Shown here one piece after another: positions 44,563 to 54,908 of a stretch of DNA of 64,000 bases. The stretch comes from a virus (Duplodnaviria; Caudoviricetes). Positions within the stretch are counted from its first letter, which is position 1; every line of letters begins with the position of its first letter. The notes under the pieces were generated by a model. It was not told the origin of the DNA. It saw only the letters and a program-made list of their open reading frames with translations, and did not search any database. Where the stretch lies: positions 32,001 through 96,000 of the IMG/VR virus record IMGVR_UViG_3300049182_000044; one strand, 5' to 3'. The translations under genes were made by a program, and so were the position numbers.

Positions 44563-45248
44563 AAGAATTTTCAAACACCGGAGTGTATTTGTCGTCTGGT
44601 TCCGCGTGTGCGAAGGCACTAGCAGAAGGCAACGTGAAACTTGCAAGCCAAATCTTCAGTCAGACTAGCGTAGACTTCAAAAAGCTGATTCCTAGCCGTT
44701 ATGATCGCGCATGGCTCATGGCGAAATCGAAGGGTGAAGATCCTCCTGCATCTCCACCGCCATTGGTGCTAGGCAGTTTGCGTGCTGACGTTGAACAGCT
44801 TCGCCTTCTCGCGTATATGCTGTACTGCAATCGAGTACCGTATGACTGCTGGCTGCCGTTACCTCCTCCGCCGCAGACCGACGCATTCATCGAGCCTGGA
44901 TCAGACGCAGAGAAAGCTGAAATCGCTCAGCTCTTGTATCAGATTCGCGAGCACTATTGCCTCATGGCTTTCAAACTCGCCGACGATCAATCTACCAACG
45001 CTGAACGCGAGCGTGTACGTCAACACACGGTCTTCAAACAGCTTCACTGGTATATGCCGGAACATACCTGGAAGGACGTTGTGAAGATGAAGGTGCCTGA
45101 GGGCATGGATCATCAAGACTACATCTTCTTGATTAAGAATTGTGAGGGGCACACTTCGCAAGATCGAAAACACCTCATGTTCGTAGGCCACGAGAACATG
45201 AAACGCTTTGAGCAGTACTTCACCAACAAACAAAGGGGAAACGCATGA
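44559..45248 (+). CDS. Hypothetical protein
   Basis: 229 aa, ATGA overlap. Confidence 0.7.
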
Positions 45249-45529
45249 ACACCGCAACTCAAGAAGCACAAGATAGCACCAACGGCACTATCACCCATCG
45301 CGTCAAGCGCGTGATCGCGCAACAGCTGGGTGTATCTGAACTGGATGTGAAGCCAGACAGCAACTTCGTCAATGACCTCGGCGCTGACAGCCTCGACGGC
45401 GTTGAACTGCTGATGGCCATCGAAGACGAGTTCGAGTTCGAGATCAGCGACGAAGACGGCGAACAGTTGACTACGCCGCAAGCCTACATCGACTTCATCG
45501 CCAAGAACAAGCCAGAACTCGCTAAATAA
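45245..45529 (+). CDS. acpP: Acyl carrier protein
   Basis: [12 protein letters not shown]...[34 protein letters not shown] with the phosphopantetheine Ser. Confidence 0.92.
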
Positions 45530-45865: not shown

Positions 45866-46144
45866 ATGCTTTCGGTGCACCTGAAACGATTTTATCGGTT
45901 CATCCTTAAAGAGACCGAGGACACAACTTCTCATGTCAATTCGGCTTGCACGGCCATCTGTGAGCCGAAGTGGCTGGCGGTCGATAAGAATGGCAAGTGC
46001 TATGCCTTCTCAGTCAAGCCTATTCTCGAAGGTAATTTCTGGATGAACCAGGACAAGAACAAAGTTTTCGTGATGACGATGCCTCAGGGTACCGATTACG
46101 ATTACTCCCAATCACTTCACGAAATAGGAAGAAGAATAGCGTGA
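45866..46144 (+). CDS. Hypothetical protein
   Basis: 92 aa; WLAVDKNG..YAFS.KP phage-type motif. Confidence 0.6.
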   Translation: MLSVHLKRFYRFILKETEDTTSHVNSACTAICEPKWLAVDKNGKCYAFSVKPILEGNFWMNQDKNKVFVMTMPQGTDYDYSQSLHEIGRRIA

Positions 46145-46596
46145 CGCTCCTCGAACAAATCAAAGCAGATCAACTGCAGGCGCGCAAAGACCGGCTGACG
46201 TTGAAAGCAACCCTGCTCACCACGTTGATCGGTGAAGCGGTAATGAAAGGCAAAAACGACGGCAACCGTGAATCGACGGATGACGAAGTGGTCGAGGTCG
46301 TCAAGAAGTTCATCAAGAACATCAACGATACGATCAAGTTTCTGACTGAAGGCGGCGCCACAGAAACTGACGAACGGCTCATTACTGTAAAGAACGAGCG
46401 TCAGATACTCGAAGCGTACCTGCCACAGCAGTTGACAGAAGACCAAATCGTCGGCTTCCTGAAAGCTTCGGGTCTGCAAACGGCTGGTATCAACAAAGGC
46501 ATTTGCATGAAGTACCTGAAAGAGAACTTCGCCGGTCGTTATGACGGCAAGGTCGCCTCTGCAGCCGTTGACCGTTTCATCAGTACCGGTCAGTAA
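46141..46596 (+). CDS. GatB/YqeY-domain protein
   Basis: LLEQIKAD...ARK...TDDEV..VVKK...E..ILEAYLPQQLTEDQI...MKYLK....GRYDGK. Confidence 0.85.
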   Translation: MTLLEQIKADQLQARKDRLTLKATLLTTLIGEAVMKGKNDGNRESTDDEVVEVVKKFIKNINDTIKFLTEGGATETDERLITVKNERQILEAYLPQQLTEDQIVGFLKASGLQTAGINKGICMKYLKENFAGRYDGKVASAAVDRFISTGQ

Positions 46597-46645
46597 CTGT
46601 AAAGCAGTATTCGTAGCAAACGTTCCAACTAACAAGAACAAGGAG

Positions 46646-47708: not shown

Positions 47709-47747
47709 TTCTGTAAATCGTAATTAGGTAGTTCATTTTAGTACCGT

Positions 47748-47823
47748 GGGGCGTTAACTCAGTTGGTAGAGTAGCGGACTCTTAATCCGTTTGTCGTAAG
47801 TTCGATCCTTACACGCCCTACCA
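47748..47823 (+). tRNA. tRNA-Lys(CTT)
   Basis: 76-nt cloverleaf, gcgga-ct-CTT-aa-tccgt, TTCGATC loop, encoded CCA. Confidence 0.95.
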
Positions 47824-47881
47824 AAGTTTCCATAGTAGTGCAGATGCGCGAAAGCGAGTTCTTACTTCTGCATTACTCACC

Positions 47882-47957
47882 GGGTCGTTAGCTCAGTCGG
47901 TAGAGCAGCGGACTTTTAATCCGTTGGTCGCGTGTTCGAGTCACGCACGGCCTACCA
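47882..47957 (+). tRNA. tRNA-Lys(TTT)
   Basis: 76-nt cloverleaf, gcgga-ct-TTT-aa-tccgt, encoded CCA. Confidence 0.95.
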
Positions 47958-47979
47958 AGTTTGTCGTAGTAAAGAGTTG

Positions 47980-48101
47980 TAACTGCCATGTGGGTGGGTA
48001 CCTGCATGTTGTCGTAAGAATGGCCAAAAAGCCGGACCTCAATTTGTGCGAGTCGAAAGGCTCTCACCAGTGTAGACAGTCCTTACAGGGGATCGCAGTT
48101 A
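47980..48101 (+). ncRNA. Structured inter-tRNA element
   Basis: taactgc/gcagtta closing stem; gagtc-GAAA-ggctc hairpin at 48050-48063. Confidence 0.35.
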
Positions 48102-48111
48102 GCTGTTACGT

Positions 48112-48187
48112 GGGGCGTTAGCTCAGTTGGGAGAGCAGCGAACTTTTAATCCGTTGGTCGCTGGTTCAAACCCAGCACGCCCTACCA
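48112..48187 (+). tRNA. tRNA-Lys(TTT), variant with A30.C40 anticodon-stem mismatch
   Basis: 76-nt cloverleaf, gcgaa-ct-TTT-aa-tccgt, TTCAAAC loop, encoded CCA. Confidence 0.9.
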
Positions 48188-48410: not shown

Positions 48411-48539
48411 GCGGGTATCGTCGAAGGTATGGCTATCGTAGTAAAGGCGTACAGTCATGTGCGTCTACATGGGGCAACTTAACAGTTGCAGCTACGACGT
48501 TCCCATGTTTCGTGAGTTCAAGTCTCACTACCCGCACCA
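48411..48539 (+). ncRNA. tRNA-like RNA, Leu-type acceptor, 129 nt, non-canonical anticodon/variable region
   Basis: gcgggta/tacccgc-A-CCA; gtgag-ttcaagt-ctcac T arm; gtc/ggc D arm; extra stems acatggg/cccatgt and gcaact/agttgc. Confidence 0.8.
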
Positions 48540-48894: not shown

Positions 48895-48905
48895 TTTCAA
48901 AGAAT

Positions 48906-48994
48906 ACGTTCTGCGAGAGATCAATACACAGTGAGTTCGGAGGTGCGGCGGGAACCATGCCTCGGAGCGGACAACAGTCTGTGCAGCAGAACGT
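48906..48994 (+). ncRNA. Unknown RNA motif, copy 1
   Basis: acgttctgc/gcagaacgt closing stem around GAGAG..TACACAGTGAGTTCGG..CGGACAACAGTCTGTGCAGC. Confidence 0.7.
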
Positions 48995-49013
48995 TATATG
49001 CGTATGTATTGAC

Positions 49014-49106
49014 GTAGGCAGTTAGACGCTGGCGCGCGATGATGGTAACTGGCAACGGTTACTTGGGCCATGCGAGACAAAACGATCACAGACCGTTACT
49101 GCTTAC
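49014..49106 (+). ncRNA. Putative structured RNA domain
   Basis: gtaggcagt/actgcttac 9-bp closing stem; gtaac/gttac inner hairpin. Confidence 0.45.
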
Positions 49107-49118
49107 TTCAATATGTAT

Positions 49119-49324
49119 TCAGTGTGTTTATGACGCACCACATTTGCGCGCACTTGCTAGAGACAGGTGTGTTCGCCCAGGTCGAAAGGCCCTCCTGCTT
49201 AACTAGCGGGCGGTTGTATAGGCTGCGAGGGCGTTTAGCAAGCAGTACGGCGTTCTGTTAGCCTGTAAGGGTGTGGGCCGGGTAGTGAAATAGCTACGAA
49301 CGTGGGGCGCCATAAATACATTGA
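49119..49324 (+). ncRNA. Putative structured ncRNA (~206 nt)
   Basis: 18-bp closing stem tcagtgtgtttatgacgc / gcgccataaatacattga (2 G.U, 1 mismatch). Confidence 0.6.
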
Positions 49325-49333
49325 GTTTATTCT

Positions 49334-49506
49334 GGCGGGGTATGCATATTGGAGTAGCTGCGATTGACCGAACCGTGGAGTCCTAGGGTCGGTGAGGTCG
49401 TCGTGGTCGAGTTGGGAACAAGCACTTTGGGAGGTCGGGTAACGTGCTCGATTGAACATTGTGACTCCGACTCGGCGTGAAAGTTCGATCCTTTCCCCTG
49501 CTGCCA
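49334..49506 (+). ncRNA. tRNA-like RNA, 173 nt, G73 discriminator, large insertion in place of the anticodon/variable arms
   Basis: ggcgggg/ccctgct-G-CCA; gaaag-ttcgatc-ctttc T arm; tgca/tgcg D stem with GG in loop. Confidence 0.8.
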
Positions 49507-49587
49507 ACGATTTCGGGACTCGTAGTTTATTCTTCGTCGAGCCGCGTTCAGCATGGGTGACCAGGTCACGTAAGTGCTGATGTTAGT

Positions 49588-49675
49588 CGGGGCGAGGGAG
49601 TAAGAACGTGTTGACTGTGATGCGCTATGCTAAATGGTCAATAAGGTGCAGGTTGAAACCCTGTCGGCCCGACCA
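49588..49675 (+). ncRNA. tRNA-like RNA, Pro-type acceptor (C1-G72, A73), 88 nt, 21-nt anticodon loop
   Basis: cggggcg/cggcccg-A-CCA; gcagg-ttgaaac-cctgt T arm; ttgac/gtcaa stem; no D stem. Confidence 0.7.
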
Positions 49676-49690
49676 ATTTCAAGGAATACC

Positions 49691-50083
49691 ATGAGTAACG
49701 CCACACCCCGATATGCAACGGTAGACGCGAACAAGATGATTATCACAGATGGTAATCATGGCGGTTATCGCACTGGCTTCTGCGCGGTCTGCGAAGCGAG
49801 CGGTTGGTTGGATGTACCGAAAGGTGCGTCGAACGGGATAGTTCATAAACCAGACTGCGTAGTTGGCATTGCACTGAGCGCACTTCAAGAGATGAAAGTG
49901 CTCGACCTGGTGAAGATGTCAAATTTGACCTACTCACTGCCATCCAACAATTTCGCCAATCAGCCGTTTATAATGGCTGATGCATTGAAACGCAGCGATC
50001 TGGAAATGGTCATGAGCTGCCGTGACTTTGACCGCATTGAAGCAGACCAAGAACATACTGTGCTTATCTGGTACAAGCAGTAA
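49691..50083 (+). CDS. Hypothetical protein
   Basis: Start MSNATP after AAGGA; CAVC...H..DC motif; 130 aa. Confidence 0.65.
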   Translation: MSNATPRYATVDANKMIITDGNHGGYRTGFCAVCEASGWLDVPKGASNGIVHKPDCVVGIALSALQEMKVLDLVKMSNLTYSLPSNNFANQPFIMADALKRSDLEMVMSCRDFDRIEADQEHTVLIWYKQ

Positions 50084-50513: not shown

Positions 50514-50615
50514 CCACAACGGCCCTAGTCGGGGCGGATCGTAGTTCAGGGGAAGAACAACCGCCGTAAGGTGGGAAGTCGCCGAATCATCTAAGGTCGA
50601 TCCTTTGCGTTGTGG
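50514..50615 (+). ncRNA. Putative structured RNA (~100 nt)
   Basis: ccacaacg/cgttgtgg closing stem; ggatcg/cgatcc inner stem. Confidence 0.5.
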
Positions 50616-51181: not shown

Positions 51182-51189
51182 TACAGAAT

Positions 51190-51545
51190 TTATGGTTGTG
51201 TGCGTAGCGTAATCTACGCGAGACGTTTGCGTGAAGGCATGGCGGACGGGAGTTCGATTCTCCCCACCTCCACCACCAGCACTTTGAACACCCGGTGATG
51301 GCCGGGAGTTTGACCATGTAGGGTAACGGCCCCATAGCAGCCGCTACAGGACCAGTTGCGATACAACTGCAAAGCGCTGTTGATGGGGGTGACCTGGTTT
51401 CGACGGCGTGAGATAGCAAGAACTACAACTCAGCAGGCGATCGCTGACTCTTCGGAGTGAATCGAAGCAAAAATAGTAAATGCAAACGACTCGCATTTCC
51501 TGCAAGCTGCAAACGCCTAATTAAGCGTTTCACTTCAGGCTAAGT
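51190..51545 (+). ncRNA. ssrA: Circularly permuted (two-piece) tmRNA; outer ends approximate
   Basis: Acceptor piece ending GGGAG-TTCGATT-CTCCC-CACCTCC-A-CCA (51275) lies upstream of GGGGGTGACCTGGTTTCGAC (51385); G3.U70 pair; tag ANDSHFLQAANA* at 51482-51520 with H5 hairpin. Confidence 0.9.
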
Positions 51546-51686
51546 GACTACGGGGTCTGTTGACATAGCGCTACGGCGCGCCGTCTTCGTGTACGTAGTT
51601 AGTCCGGCCACTCCACCTTTCGCCGATAATGACGCGACTGCGCGTGGGTGTCTTAGTCAGCGCGTAAGCGCACCGAAGCCGGACTA
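51546..51686 (+). ncRNA. Structured RNA domains downstream of the tmRNA tag
   Basis: gactacg/cgtagtt and tagtccggc/gccggacta stems. Confidence 0.5.
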
Positions 51687-51989: not shown

Positions 51990-52055
51990 ACATTCTCAAA
52001 TCGCGACCTAAGGTGGTCCCGATCATTCAACTTTAATCCATTGAAAGGATTTATC

Positions 52056-52607
52056 ATGAACTCTGCAACACAATTCCCCACCTCGTCTTCTCTTCTCGAA
52101 AAAGCAGCACACTACGCGACAACATTGTTCGATGCGGATAATCTTAAGTTCGATGCGCCGATCTTCACCGATCAGTACGTATCCTTTCCCATGACACACA
52201 GCCTCAACATCGACGGCGACTTCTTTATCAGGGCGCAAAGCGTTGGTGTAACATTCAAAGGTGAGGACGTACGGCTGTTCTATCTACTGCAGGATATGGT
52301 CAAGCGCCATCACCTGCATTTCAGGGTTCAGCACGAAGGTAAATGGGAATACTTTAACCCGCACTTGGCTGGTGAAGGTCAGTTCTCGATGAAGAACCCT
52401 TGCACGTTCTATCTTGCGGGTATTGCAAGCGGAAATCTCAAGGGCTGGTCGGACATTCCTATCAGCCGTGACCCTGCAACATTCGATGACCGCGCAAAGT
52501 TCCTCGCGGTCTTGCTGTATCGTGAATGGGTGCGTCAGATGATGCCCATCATTAAGATGTATCAGTGGTTCCGTGCAAACGACTTACTTGCACCTATCGT
52601 CAAATAA
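52056..52607 (+). CDS. Hypothetical protein
   Basis: Start MNSATQ after AAAGGA; 183 aa. Confidence 0.7.
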   Translation: MNSATQFPTSSSLLEKAAHYATTLFDADNLKFDAPIFTDQYVSFPMTHSLNIDGDFFIRAQSVGVTFKGEDVRLFYLLQDMVKRHHLHFRVQHEGKWEYFNPHLAGEGQFSMKNPCTFYLAGIASGNLKGWSDIPISRDPATFDDRAKFLAVLLYREWVRQMMPIIKMYQWFRANDLLAPIVK

Positions 52608-53048: not shown

Positions 53049-53539
53049 AACGCCTTCTGATTGCCCTTTTCCTCCTTCCTCTGACCTTCGTTCTCACCGC
53101 ATGTGAAGAAGACAAGCCGACGCCGGTGAAGGCAGAACAAGCAGCCAAAGCACGCGCGGCTGCGAACAGCATCAACTTCACTGAGAACGCTGAAATCGAC
53201 AACATCAAGAAGCGCCTGGAGTTGACCTCCAAGAACGATCTTGTCGGCTTCATCATCCTGTTGAACGAGAGCGGCCAGCCGGTGATGTACACTTCGATCA
53301 AAGGCAAGCCCACTTCGGGTGGCAAACGCCTGACGGAACCGGATCGTTACTGGGGCAACTCGACACATGCGGGGATGCGTGCCGCGCCGAGTGACGAGGG
53401 CACTTACGGCTCCTCTGGTGAGTATGTCTTCTTCTGGACGGTGGATGGCCAGTACATGCAATGGAACGGCAAGTACCTGTACTCGGACAAGCCTTTCCGC
53501 CTGAGCGTACAACCGCTGGTTGTCAACGTCAAGGAGTAA
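53045..53539 (+). CDS. Lipoprotein
   Basis: MKRLLIALFLLPLTFVLTA/C lipobox. Confidence 0.75.
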   Translation: MKRLLIALFLLPLTFVLTACEEDKPTPVKAEQAAKARAAANSINFTENAEIDNIKKRLELTSKNDLVGFIILLNESGQPVMYTSIKGKPTSGGKRLTEPDRYWGNSTHAGMRAAPSDEGTYGSSGEYVFFWTVDGQYMQWNGKYLYSDKPFRLSVQPLVVNVKE

Positions 53540-53543
53540 CGCT

Positions 53544-54908
53544 ATGGGTGTGGCTTCGGTCACACCCAATTGCCTTGATAGGTGCGTCTTCAATGAGGAT
53601 TCACCTATCAGATCAATGTCAGCGGAGTTTTACGTGTCAGCCCTCACCCTTAACGTGCAACAAAAAGAGGCGTATGACGGGATACTGAACTTCTTATCGT
53701 ATAACCAAAACGAGCATAAGTTTTATGTGCTCTCAGGATGGGCAGGCACCGGCAAGACGTACTTGCTCGGGGCGTTGCACGAAGCGTTAGACCGATACGG
53801 CTCAGTGTTCACAGCGCCAACGAACAAAGCAACTAAGGTAACATCTAGAACAATTGGTGCGGGAGCCCAATGCAAAACCATCTACTCGCTCCTGGGCATT
53901 CGCATGGTGGCGAACGAAGACCGCATGGTCTTAGAGTTTCCTAAGAAGCCCGTAGACCTCAGCGGCTATAGTCGAATCTATGTCGATGAAGCCTCAATGG
54001 TCAATGAGTCACTTCTGGCTTACATCCGTGATCGTAGTCGATACTCGGCCACCAAATGGATCTTCATCGGCGACCGTGGTCAGTTACCTCCTGTCGGTGA
54101 GAAAGAATCGAAGGTGTGGACACTAAAATGTCCTAAATCACACCTGGAGAAGGTAGAGCGCTACGACAACGAGATCCTTGAGTTTGCTACACACGTTCGC
54201 AAATGCATTCAGAGGTATCCAGATGGCTCTCTGCGTATGCGTAGCAATCACAGCGCAAGCGAAGGCGTGTGGAAGTACAATCGCGGCGGCTTCATGCGTA
54301 ACATTGAGCGTGCTGCCAAGAGAGGCCTGTTCACCGAAATAGATAACACAAAGGCCATCGCGTGGCGTAACAAGACGGTCAATGAGCTGAATCAATTCAT
54401 CCGCTACAACATCTTTGGTAAGGTCGCAGACAAACAACCGTGGCTGCCCGGTGATCGCGTGATGATGGGAGAGCCTGTTCAGATCGGCAGCGCAATCATT
54501 GCCCACGTTGATGATGAAGGTACCGTAGTCGAGGAAGGTGTCGCCTACCACAGCGAGTACAAAGACTTCAATGCGTATCATGTGACTGTTCAGATCGACG
54601 ATGGCCCGGCTGTCCAGTTGAACATCATTCACGAAGACTCGCAAGCCAAATTCGTCCGACGCCTAGGTGAATTAGCCTTAATGGCTAAGAAAGAAAAGCA
54701 CTACTGGCGGGAGTTTTGGGCGTTGAAGAACGCTTTTCAAAGCATTCGGCATAGCTATGCCTTAACTGCTCACCGGGCGCAGGGCAGTACGTTCACGAAT
54801 ACGTTCTTGGATACTGCTGATATTCTGGCTAATTCCAACTCGTATGAAGCACTTCGATGCTTGTACGTAGGTGCAACACGCGCTCAATCCAATCTTATTC
54901 TTGTCTAA
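53544..54908 (+). CDS. Dda/RecD-like SF1B DNA helicase
   Basis: GWAGTGKT, APTNKA, VDEASMV, IGDRGQLPPV, YALTAHRAQGSTF; ATG after AAGGAG. Confidence 0.9.
   Translation: MGVASVTPNCLDRCVFNEDSPIRSMSAEFYVSALTLNVQQKEAYDGILNFLSYNQNEHKFYVLSGWAGTGKTYLLGALHEALDRYGSVFTAPTNKATKVTSRTIGAGAQCKTIYSLLGIRMVANEDRMVLEFPKKPVDLSGYSRIYVDEASMVNESLLAYIRDRSRYSATKWIFIGDRGQLPPVGEKESKVWTLKCPKSHLEKVERYDNEILEFATHVRKCIQRYPDGSLRMRSNHSASEGVWKYNRGGFMRNIERAAKRGLFTEIDNTKAIAWRNKTVNELNQFIRYNIFGKVADKQPWLPGDRVMMGEPVQIGSAIIAHVDDEGTVVEEGVAYHSEYKDFNAYHVTVQIDDGPAVQLNIIHEDSQAKFVRRLGELALMAKKEKHYWREFWALKNAFQSIRHSYALTAHRAQGSTFTNTFLDTADILANSNSYEALRCLYVGATRAQSNLILV

Follow-up and report, generated by a model that had tools for sequence, protein, structure and literature searches.

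Since T4 species 1 RNA was sequenced in the 1970s, phage tRNA clusters have been known to hold tRNA-like stable RNAs of unknown function. The biological role of species 1 RNA (RNA C) is still unknown (PMC3014915, PMC9697503). When the T4 tRNA cluster is folded, this 139-nt RNA (gene rnaC) is closed by an acceptor-like stem, which stacks on a canonical T arm (CCGGG-UUCGAAU-CCCGG), and has two hairpins at the anticodon region; the closing stem contains two U.U mismatches and no CCA is encoded. For T4 species 2 RNA (RNA D) no T arm is seen. Two further RNAs are relevant here. The tmRNA combines the top half of a tRNA with a large non-tRNA insert and has no anticodon, and YrlA, a bacterial Y RNA, is a non-coding mimic of the tRNA elbow. 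In YrlA, the stem that binds Ro contains both the 5′ and the 3′ end, and a free acceptor end with CCA is lacking.

Here we describe a 173-nt element of comparable design, located at positions 49334–49506 (plus strand) of a 64,000-nt stretch of DNA, below called the window, which comprises bases 32001–96000 of the complete 281,566-bp virus record of an uncultivated soil jumbo phage. We will argue that the element is, on balance, probably a real gene encoding a stable RNA that has the shape of a tRNA but does not decode. This RNA would be transcribed with the island of RNA genes around it, cut by RNase P, trimmed to its CCA end and protected by its tRNA shell, with two arms and a G.A motif as its working parts. 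The phage sequence is present in one run only, namely the source soil DNA metagenome, and no RNA run is listed.

The shell is made up of an acceptor stem with discriminator G73 and encoded CCA, of a canonical T arm and of a D loop that contains GG. The 5′ acceptor strand GGCGGGG (positions 1–7, 49334–49340, +) pairs with CCCUGCU (49496–49502, +) to form a 7-bp stem that includes the wobbles G1.U72 and G4.U69, and the 3′ strand is followed by G73 (49503) and the genome-encoded CCA (49504–49506). The T arm GAAAG-UUCGAUC-CUUUC (positions 146–162, 49479–49495, +) is preceded by GU and presents U54 U55 C56 G57 A58 in its loop. These features and the coordinates can be read directly off the letters, and they are as a first-pass annotation of the window had given them. 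That annotation had also called the D arm intact, which is correct for the loop but not for the stem. The D arm (positions 10–26, 49343–49359, +) has UUGG, with G18G19, in the 11-nt loop AUAUUGGAGUA, but its stem is only 2–3 bp long (G11-C25 and C12-G24), which is class-II-like.

The existence of this shell goes beyond chance, because five modules of its kind are found in the genome compared to 0.025 expected. In these calculations, a 5-bp T stem with a TTCRANN loop and a directly stacked 7-bp acceptor stem were searched for at a total length of 60–420 nt, which gave nine modules in the 281.6-kb genome. Five of them have NCCA behind the stem, and all five lie inside the RNA island: they are three tRNA-Lys genes, a 129-nt element at 48411–48539 and the 173-nt element. 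Among 40 Markov-shuffled genomes, the mean number of NCCA modules is 0.025 and the maximum is 1. Standard tools do not pick up the element. ARAGORN at default settings makes no call at this location, whether introns are allowed or not, and Rfam 15, tRNA model included, gives no match in window 48900–49900 at E<=10.

We now turn to the interior. When only the shell is constrained, the MFE fold consists of five helices (acceptor, short D, arm A, arm B and T), in the window copy and in a homologue from a related phage (L003, see below) alike. For the window copy, the ensemble gives the pairs of these helices probabilities of 0.65–1.0. Arm A (positions 27–68, 49360–49401, +) begins with a 5-bp stem, GCGAU/GUCGU, at the position of the anticodon stem. 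Above it there is a symmetric loop, 5′-UGA/3′-GAG, with tandem G.A and A.G, and then a 26-nt distal hairpin with a 4-nt loop; there is no 7-nt anticodon loop, and the pair probabilities are 0.67–0.97. Arm B (positions 73–143, 49406–49476, +) is a long hairpin at the variable-arm position, with a 10-bp basal helix, GUCGAGUUGG/CCGACUCGGC, whose pair probabilities are 0.97–1.0.

With no anticodon loop in the fold, the earlier description of the element as a tRNA shell without a decoding arm is borne out. The nested interior stems of the same annotation, on the other hand, had to be given up. They are complementary segments, but gcac/gtgc and tcgag/ctcga share C114, and the nested-stem model has an energy of −35.7 kcal/mol, compared to −64.7 kcal/mol for the best shell-constrained fold, and an ensemble probability of about 0. 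It is important to note that, relative to shuffled sequences, the whole-molecule MFE is not unusually low for the window copy (z = −1.3); for L003 it is z = −2.2. Comparative support among the arms is found at the base of arm A only, and neither arm has significant similarity or complementarity elsewhere within the phage genome. The 5′ acceptor strand has a second copy inside the element (GGUCGGG-UA at 49433), which pairs with the 3′ strand with one mismatch; it yields no tRNA above 75% of the ARAGORN threshold.

The structure can be compared with the known RNAs. As regards the tRNA family (RF00005), the element has the 7-bp acceptor stem, the discriminator, the 3′ CCA, the U54-U55-C56-R57-A58 T loop and G18G19, but neither an anticodon arm with a 7-nt loop, the stem 27–31 running on into a helix, nor an above-threshold score. 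The 2–3-bp D stem with its 11-nt loop, the extra arm and the GU before the T stem are class-II (Leu/Ser-type) traits. With a class-II tRNA the element thus shares the acceptor stem, discriminator and CCA, the T arm and loop with the preceding GU, a D stem of the 3-bp type with an 11-nt G18G19 loop, a 5-bp stem at the anticodon-stem position and an arm at the variable position. It differs from it in that the anticodon arm continues as a helix in place of the 7-nt loop, and in that the variable arm has about 70 nt compared to 13–21. The identity of the D arm gave no discriminating isotype for the shell.

The closest known design is that of T4 species 1 RNA, the likeness being one of design and not of demonstrated family membership. 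Both RNAs lie in a phage tRNA cluster, have a closing stem stacked on a canonical T arm and two hairpins at the anticodon region, and are absent from Rfam 15, where L003 and T4 rnaC and rnaD give sub-threshold noise only. BLAST of RNA C returns an 11-nt T-arm match to L003 only and none to the window copy. What distinguishes the element from RNA C is a clean acceptor stem of 7 bp together with an encoded CCA, a GG D loop and the tandem G.A motif. With the tmRNA it has in common the tRNA top half, a large non-tRNA insert and the lack of an anticodon, but the first-pass annotation was right to set this assignment aside: the 3–70 pair is C-G and not G.U, a D stem is present, there is neither a tag frame nor a pseudoknot ring, and neither Rfam nor ARAGORN makes a tmRNA call. 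The same annotation had pointed to YrlA and other Rfam tRNA-like models for comparison, and this lead did not hold up. The ends of the element form an acceptor stem, no Rfam model matches at the locus, and no Ro/TROVE gene was detected in the phage. Of further partner proteins looked for in the phage genome, no CCA-adding enzyme, class Ia or IIb aminoacyl-tRNA synthetase core domain or SmpB was found either.

Relatives of the phage were reached via its Dda-like helicase gene (53520–54908) and a 188-aa gene (52041–52607). One of them, a Logan contig (L003) with a Dda-like helicase that is 66% identical, carries a structural homologue of 191 nt (L003:1266–1456). Two members were thus found. Plain BLAST does not align the two RNAs, and their homology therefore rests on shared structure, motifs and island synteny. 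The 20 pairs of the shell (acceptor, D, stem 27–31 and T) comprise 9 that are the same in both copies, 3 with a change on one side, 7 with changes on both sides, and 1 that is broken. In the acceptor stem, two pairs are changed on both sides and three on one side; the D stem has C12-G24 in the window and A12-U24 in L003; the stem of arm A has three pairs changed on both sides, and the T arm has one.

Together with these helices, a number of motifs are retained. The D loops have AUUGG in common, the T loop keeps U54 U55 C56 G57 A58, the 5′-UGA/3′-GAN tandem G.A loop is kept at positions 32–34 (the 3′ side being GAG in the window and GAU in L003), and the first 34 nt of the two copies follow one pattern, GGCGnnGUAUGnnnAUUGGnnUAnCnGnnAnUGA. 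Outside the shell and the G.A loop the interior differs between the copies. The distal part of arm A, 26 nt long in the window, reaches 51 nt in L003, and arm B, with 72 and 67 nt, respectively, emerges from the same junction with unrelated sequence. That the same design is kept in a related phage argues for a real, non-decoding RNA. The comparison also agrees, at the level of sequence, with the earlier picture of a scaffold that displays a cargo, the shell being kept by compensatory changes and the interior replaced.

The two copies differ at the acceptor end. L003 ends with GUGAAGGUUCGAAUCCUUC-CUUCGUC-A-CCU, that is, ACCU and not ACCA, and it has A73 and G1-C72, while the window copy has G73 and G1.U72. 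Because the discriminator and acceptor pairs differ in this way, no single aminoacyl-tRNA synthetase identity set is maintained. The D loop of L003 is the tRNA-Leu D loop GAAUUGGUA, in combination with A73.

The genomic setting is that of an RNA island. Three tRNA-Lys genes (one CUU and two UUU, at window 47748, 47882 and 48112, +) and a permuted tmRNA (window 51183–51611, 1.7 kb downstream of the element) were called by ARAGORN on the whole genome, and Rfam agrees with these four and matches nothing else. The element lies between the tRNA-Lys genes and the tmRNA, in a 4-kb stretch that holds small orphan ORFs only. Its further companions are the 129-nt tRNA-shaped RNA and a covarying RNA of ~200 nt, all on one strand and with one promoter-like motif ahead. 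This motif is CTGTAAA (47711–47717, +), just upstream of the first tRNA-Lys. All 13 copies of CTGTAAA in the window are on the plus strand (e.g. at 46597, 47711 and 56387), compared to 5.6 expected on both strands together, no copy occurs between 47711 and 56387, and the motif is also found ahead of the RNA islands of relatives. It is likely that CTGTAAA is a phage promoter element and that the copy at 47711 is the start of a transcript spanning the island, which as a whole would then be a single transcription unit.

The three tRNA-Lys genes (47748–48187, +) are the only canonical tRNAs of the whole 281-kb phage, while relatives carry Leu, Thr, Lys or larger sets; the restriction to tRNA-Lys may reflect pressure from nucleases directed at tRNA-Lys. 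Just upstream of the island there are genes for a YqeY-domain protein (46141–46596, +, E = 6e-17) and for a PP-binding protein of the acyl-carrier type (45245–45529, +, E = 4e-15). In L006, YqeY is also upstream of the island, and in L098 and L103 PP-binding genes adjoin the islands. For the ORF downstream of the element (49691–50083) no homologue was found.

As to the distribution of the element, nine distinct related islands were inspected (L002/L098/L099, L003, L004, L005, L006/L007, L100–L102, L103–L106, L110/L111 and L232); L008 has no RNA island upstream. It occurs in two of the nine distinct related islands inspected, at different positions, and among the relatives reached in L003 only, where it is at another site, directly before the 188-aa gene. 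It is absent from the islands of L004, L005, L006/L007, L100–L102, L103–L106, L110 and L232. The closest relative with a complete island, L098 (helicase 76% identical), has tRNA-Lys, tRNA-Leu, the conserved RNA upstream of the element and tmRNA, but not the element itself, which is therefore dispensable. The patchy presence and the changing position point to an accessory, shuffled cassette of a mosaic RNA island. Searches further afield gave no additional member. IMG/VR contains one distant jumbo relative only (G001, complete, 286 kb, with 7 tRNAs and tmRNA), which lacks the element; an exact 28-mer and three degenerate or gapped patterns gave chance coding matches or none in viral_contigs, metagenome_contigs and genome_contigs; and a 1.3-kb blastn query had no match among GenBank phages. 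None of the relatives is cultured; the best helicase match in a GenBank phage is 41% identical.

On the basis of these results, the following mechanism can be put forward. From a class-II-type tRNA the RNA retains the upper half, with acceptor stem, T arm and the GG D loop that forms the elbow; the anticodon loop is replaced by a helical extension (arm A, with the tandem G.A), and the variable arm is enlarged to about 70 nt (arm B). Its transcription would be part of a long RNA-island transcript starting from CTGTAAA at 47711. Because the shell resembles a pre-tRNA, host RNase P could be expected to cut before G1, where a U is present at −1 and GCCA at the 3′ end, and the 3′ end would be trimmed to the encoded GCCA. 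The compact tRNA shell would then both protect the RNA and provide a handle for proteins that bind tRNA, and the two outward-pointing arms, which differ between the phages, would carry the specific activity. As three tRNA-Lys genes, a tmRNA and other tRNA mimics adjoin the element, its most likely field of action would be the phage-host conflict over tRNA and translation, for example through sequestering a host factor that recognizes tRNA.

A broader proposal, which we regard as doubtful, is that the element is one case of a widespread, uncatalogued phage platform. In such a platform, the shell would serve for RNase P maturation, stability and access of proteins, and the exchangeable arms would be programmable effectors, for example as decoys or sponges that target tRNA-directed host immunity or translation factors. 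Alternatively, a synthetase blind to the anticodon may charge the shell, which would deliver its amino acid outside normal decoding. A dedicated protein, for instance the YqeY-domain protein, would dock at the G.A loop.

Stable tRNA-like RNAs of phages are missed by gene finders, Rfam and genome annotation. The present case adds a family with two members, from uncultivated soil jumbo phages, in which the shell is held by compensatory changes and the sites of the anticodon loop and the variable loop both carry large helices that have diverged beyond alignment, one of them keeping a tandem G.A at its base. Should the arms be effectors, the family would be a natural counterpart of engineered tRNA scaffolds and a new layer of the phage-host conflict over tRNA; should they not be, the element would still be a useful marker of mosaic RNA islands.

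A number of other explanations have to be weighed against that of a genuine stable RNA. The one that survives best, although we consider it unlikely, is that the element is a decaying class-II tRNA gene of the Ser or Leu type, turned by insertions into a functionless pseudogene. The absence of the element from most related islands, including that of the closest relative, is in line with this, as are an interior no more stable than shuffled sequence, the ACCU end of L003 and the fact that both copies allow vestiges of a Ser-like anticodon stem-loop to be drawn. However, the two copies have diverged beyond BLAST alignment and have nevertheless kept 19 of the 20 shell pairs, 7 of them by double changes, and the T loop, G18G19, the tandem G.A loop and the two-arm layout are all kept as well. 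Neutral decay would have broken these helices, which makes a pseudogene unlikely.

Another option considered was that the RNA is a non-decoding mimic which is aminoacylated by an anticodon-independent synthetase of the Ser or Leu type, and which either acts on the ribosome in the manner of tmRNA or donates its aminoacyl group outside translation. Neither SerRS nor LeuRS reads the anticodon, and a long extra arm counts among the identity features of Ser. The element has a full acceptor end including CCA and an intact elbow, G73 of the window copy is Ser-like, A73 and the D loop of L003 are Leu-like, and a tmRNA and a YqeY-domain gene are nearby. On the other hand, the copies do not agree in their discriminator and first acceptor pairs, there is neither G3.U70 nor a tag frame, no phage synthetase or SmpB was detected, and the extra arm is far longer than that of any natural tRNA-Ser. 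Charging of this kind is therefore judged to be quite unlikely.

Similarly improbable is a role of the element as pure punctuation, that is, as a t-element processing signal that recruits RNase P and 3′ trimming and thereby frees the neighbouring RNAs or sets the 5′ end of a downstream mRNA. The location would be suitable, the element beginning 16 nt past the conserved upstream RNA (49126–49318) and about 185 nt ahead of an ORF, in an island that is apparently one transcription unit. But a processing signal has no need of about 95 extra nt or of a conserved G.A motif, the upstream RNA occurs in L098, L005 and L003 with no element adjoining it, and the L003 homologue is in a different context.

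Very unlikely, finally, is a tRNA-Ser(UGA/CGA) with a new type of removable insert in the anticodon loop (86 nt in the window, 109 nt in L003), the excision of which would yield a decoding class-II tRNA. When introns are allowed, ARAGORN indeed gives tRNA-Ser(UGA) for the window copy at 75% of its threshold and tRNA-Ser(CGA) for L003 at 90%. Excision would leave the window copy with a canonical UUUGAAC loop, with G73 and with a long variable region, and in a reading of the sequences the alternative 3′ partner of stem 27–31 covaries between the copies. When the shell is kept and the interior shuffled, however, a full-length intron-containing tRNA is called in 217 of 600 cases for the window (36%) and in 588 of 600 for L003 (98%), with Ser making up 7–12% of the calls. 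The ARAGORN intron calls are thus at chance level and carry no information, since the shuffled interiors reproduce them, and the coincidence of Ser in both copies corresponds to p of about 0.1. Moreover, the intron-type fold is less favourable by 20 kcal/mol for the window copy and by 6 kcal/mol for L003, and the ‘mature’ form of L003 would have G33 in the loop and A73. These results weigh against the novel removable insert suggested in the first-pass annotation, while its exclusion of a group I or II intron is confirmed: an insert of 86–109 nt is far below the size of a group I core, and no Rfam intron model matches. EndA, RtcB, Rnl1 and Rnl2 were not detected in the phage genome, although for Rnl1 this is by itself a weak argument, because the search was positive in no control genome.

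Two candidates can be dismissed directly: an attP-like tRNA fragment is rejected because both acceptor strands are present and covary, and a protein-coding explanation was dropped, the minus-strand ORFs overlapping the element having no PHROG match and the window ORFs with an assigned function all being on the plus strand.

In addition to the element, the island and those of the relatives contain several other RNA-like features. The second tRNA-shaped RNA of the window (48411–48539, +, 129 nt) has a perfect 7-bp acceptor stem, GCGGGUA/UACCCGC, followed by A73-CCA, and a T arm GUGAG-UUCAAGU-CUCAC. It is more stable than its shuffles (z = −3.8), and ARAGORN calls it only as a tRNA-Cys with a 45-nt ‘intron’. 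No homologue of it was found in the relatives examined. Outside the window, a 123-nt stretch of the same genome (G000:C1:105008–105130, +) has a perfect 7-bp stem, TGGAACG/CGTTCCA, and a T arm, GCGGG-TTCAAAT-CCCGC, with no CCA. A possible third degenerate tRNA-like stretch in the window (50515–50615, +) contains a GNRA hairpin, CCGCC-GUAA-GGUGG, and a T-arm-like segment, AAGGUCGAUCCUU; its stability is not unusual (z = −1.6).

The conserved structured RNA that ends 16 nt before the element has a length of about 195–225 nt and is found at window 49126–49318 (+), L098:2187–2411, L005:1455–1652 and L003:822–1032, with shorter versions in L004, L100 and L232. It is closed by the stem UUAUGACGC.../...GCGCCAUAA, and in an RNAalifold calculation on four phages 18 of its 45 pairs are changed on both sides; it belongs to no Rfam family. 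Further upstream, in 49008–49047 (+), there is a 38-nt block with CAGUUAGACG...GCGCGCGAUGAUGG that is 87–88% identical in the distant L004, L006/L007 and L103–L106. The block follows tRNA-Leu in L005 and L006/L007, and stands just upstream of a 175–195-aa homologue of the 188-aa gene in L004, L100, L103–L106 and L232. It is probably the start of another RNA.

In the relatives, two more cases were observed. In the relative G001, at L108:9279–9402 (−), a second T arm with an acceptor 3′ strand ending in ACCA stands directly behind a tRNA-Met and looks like a duplicated 3′ half of a tRNA. L110:2698–3988 belongs to a soil jumbo relative of 204 kb; here 1.1 kb of non-coding sequence after a phage Hfq gene contains a tRNA-Leu, a T arm and a GGGGCCC-ACCA end.
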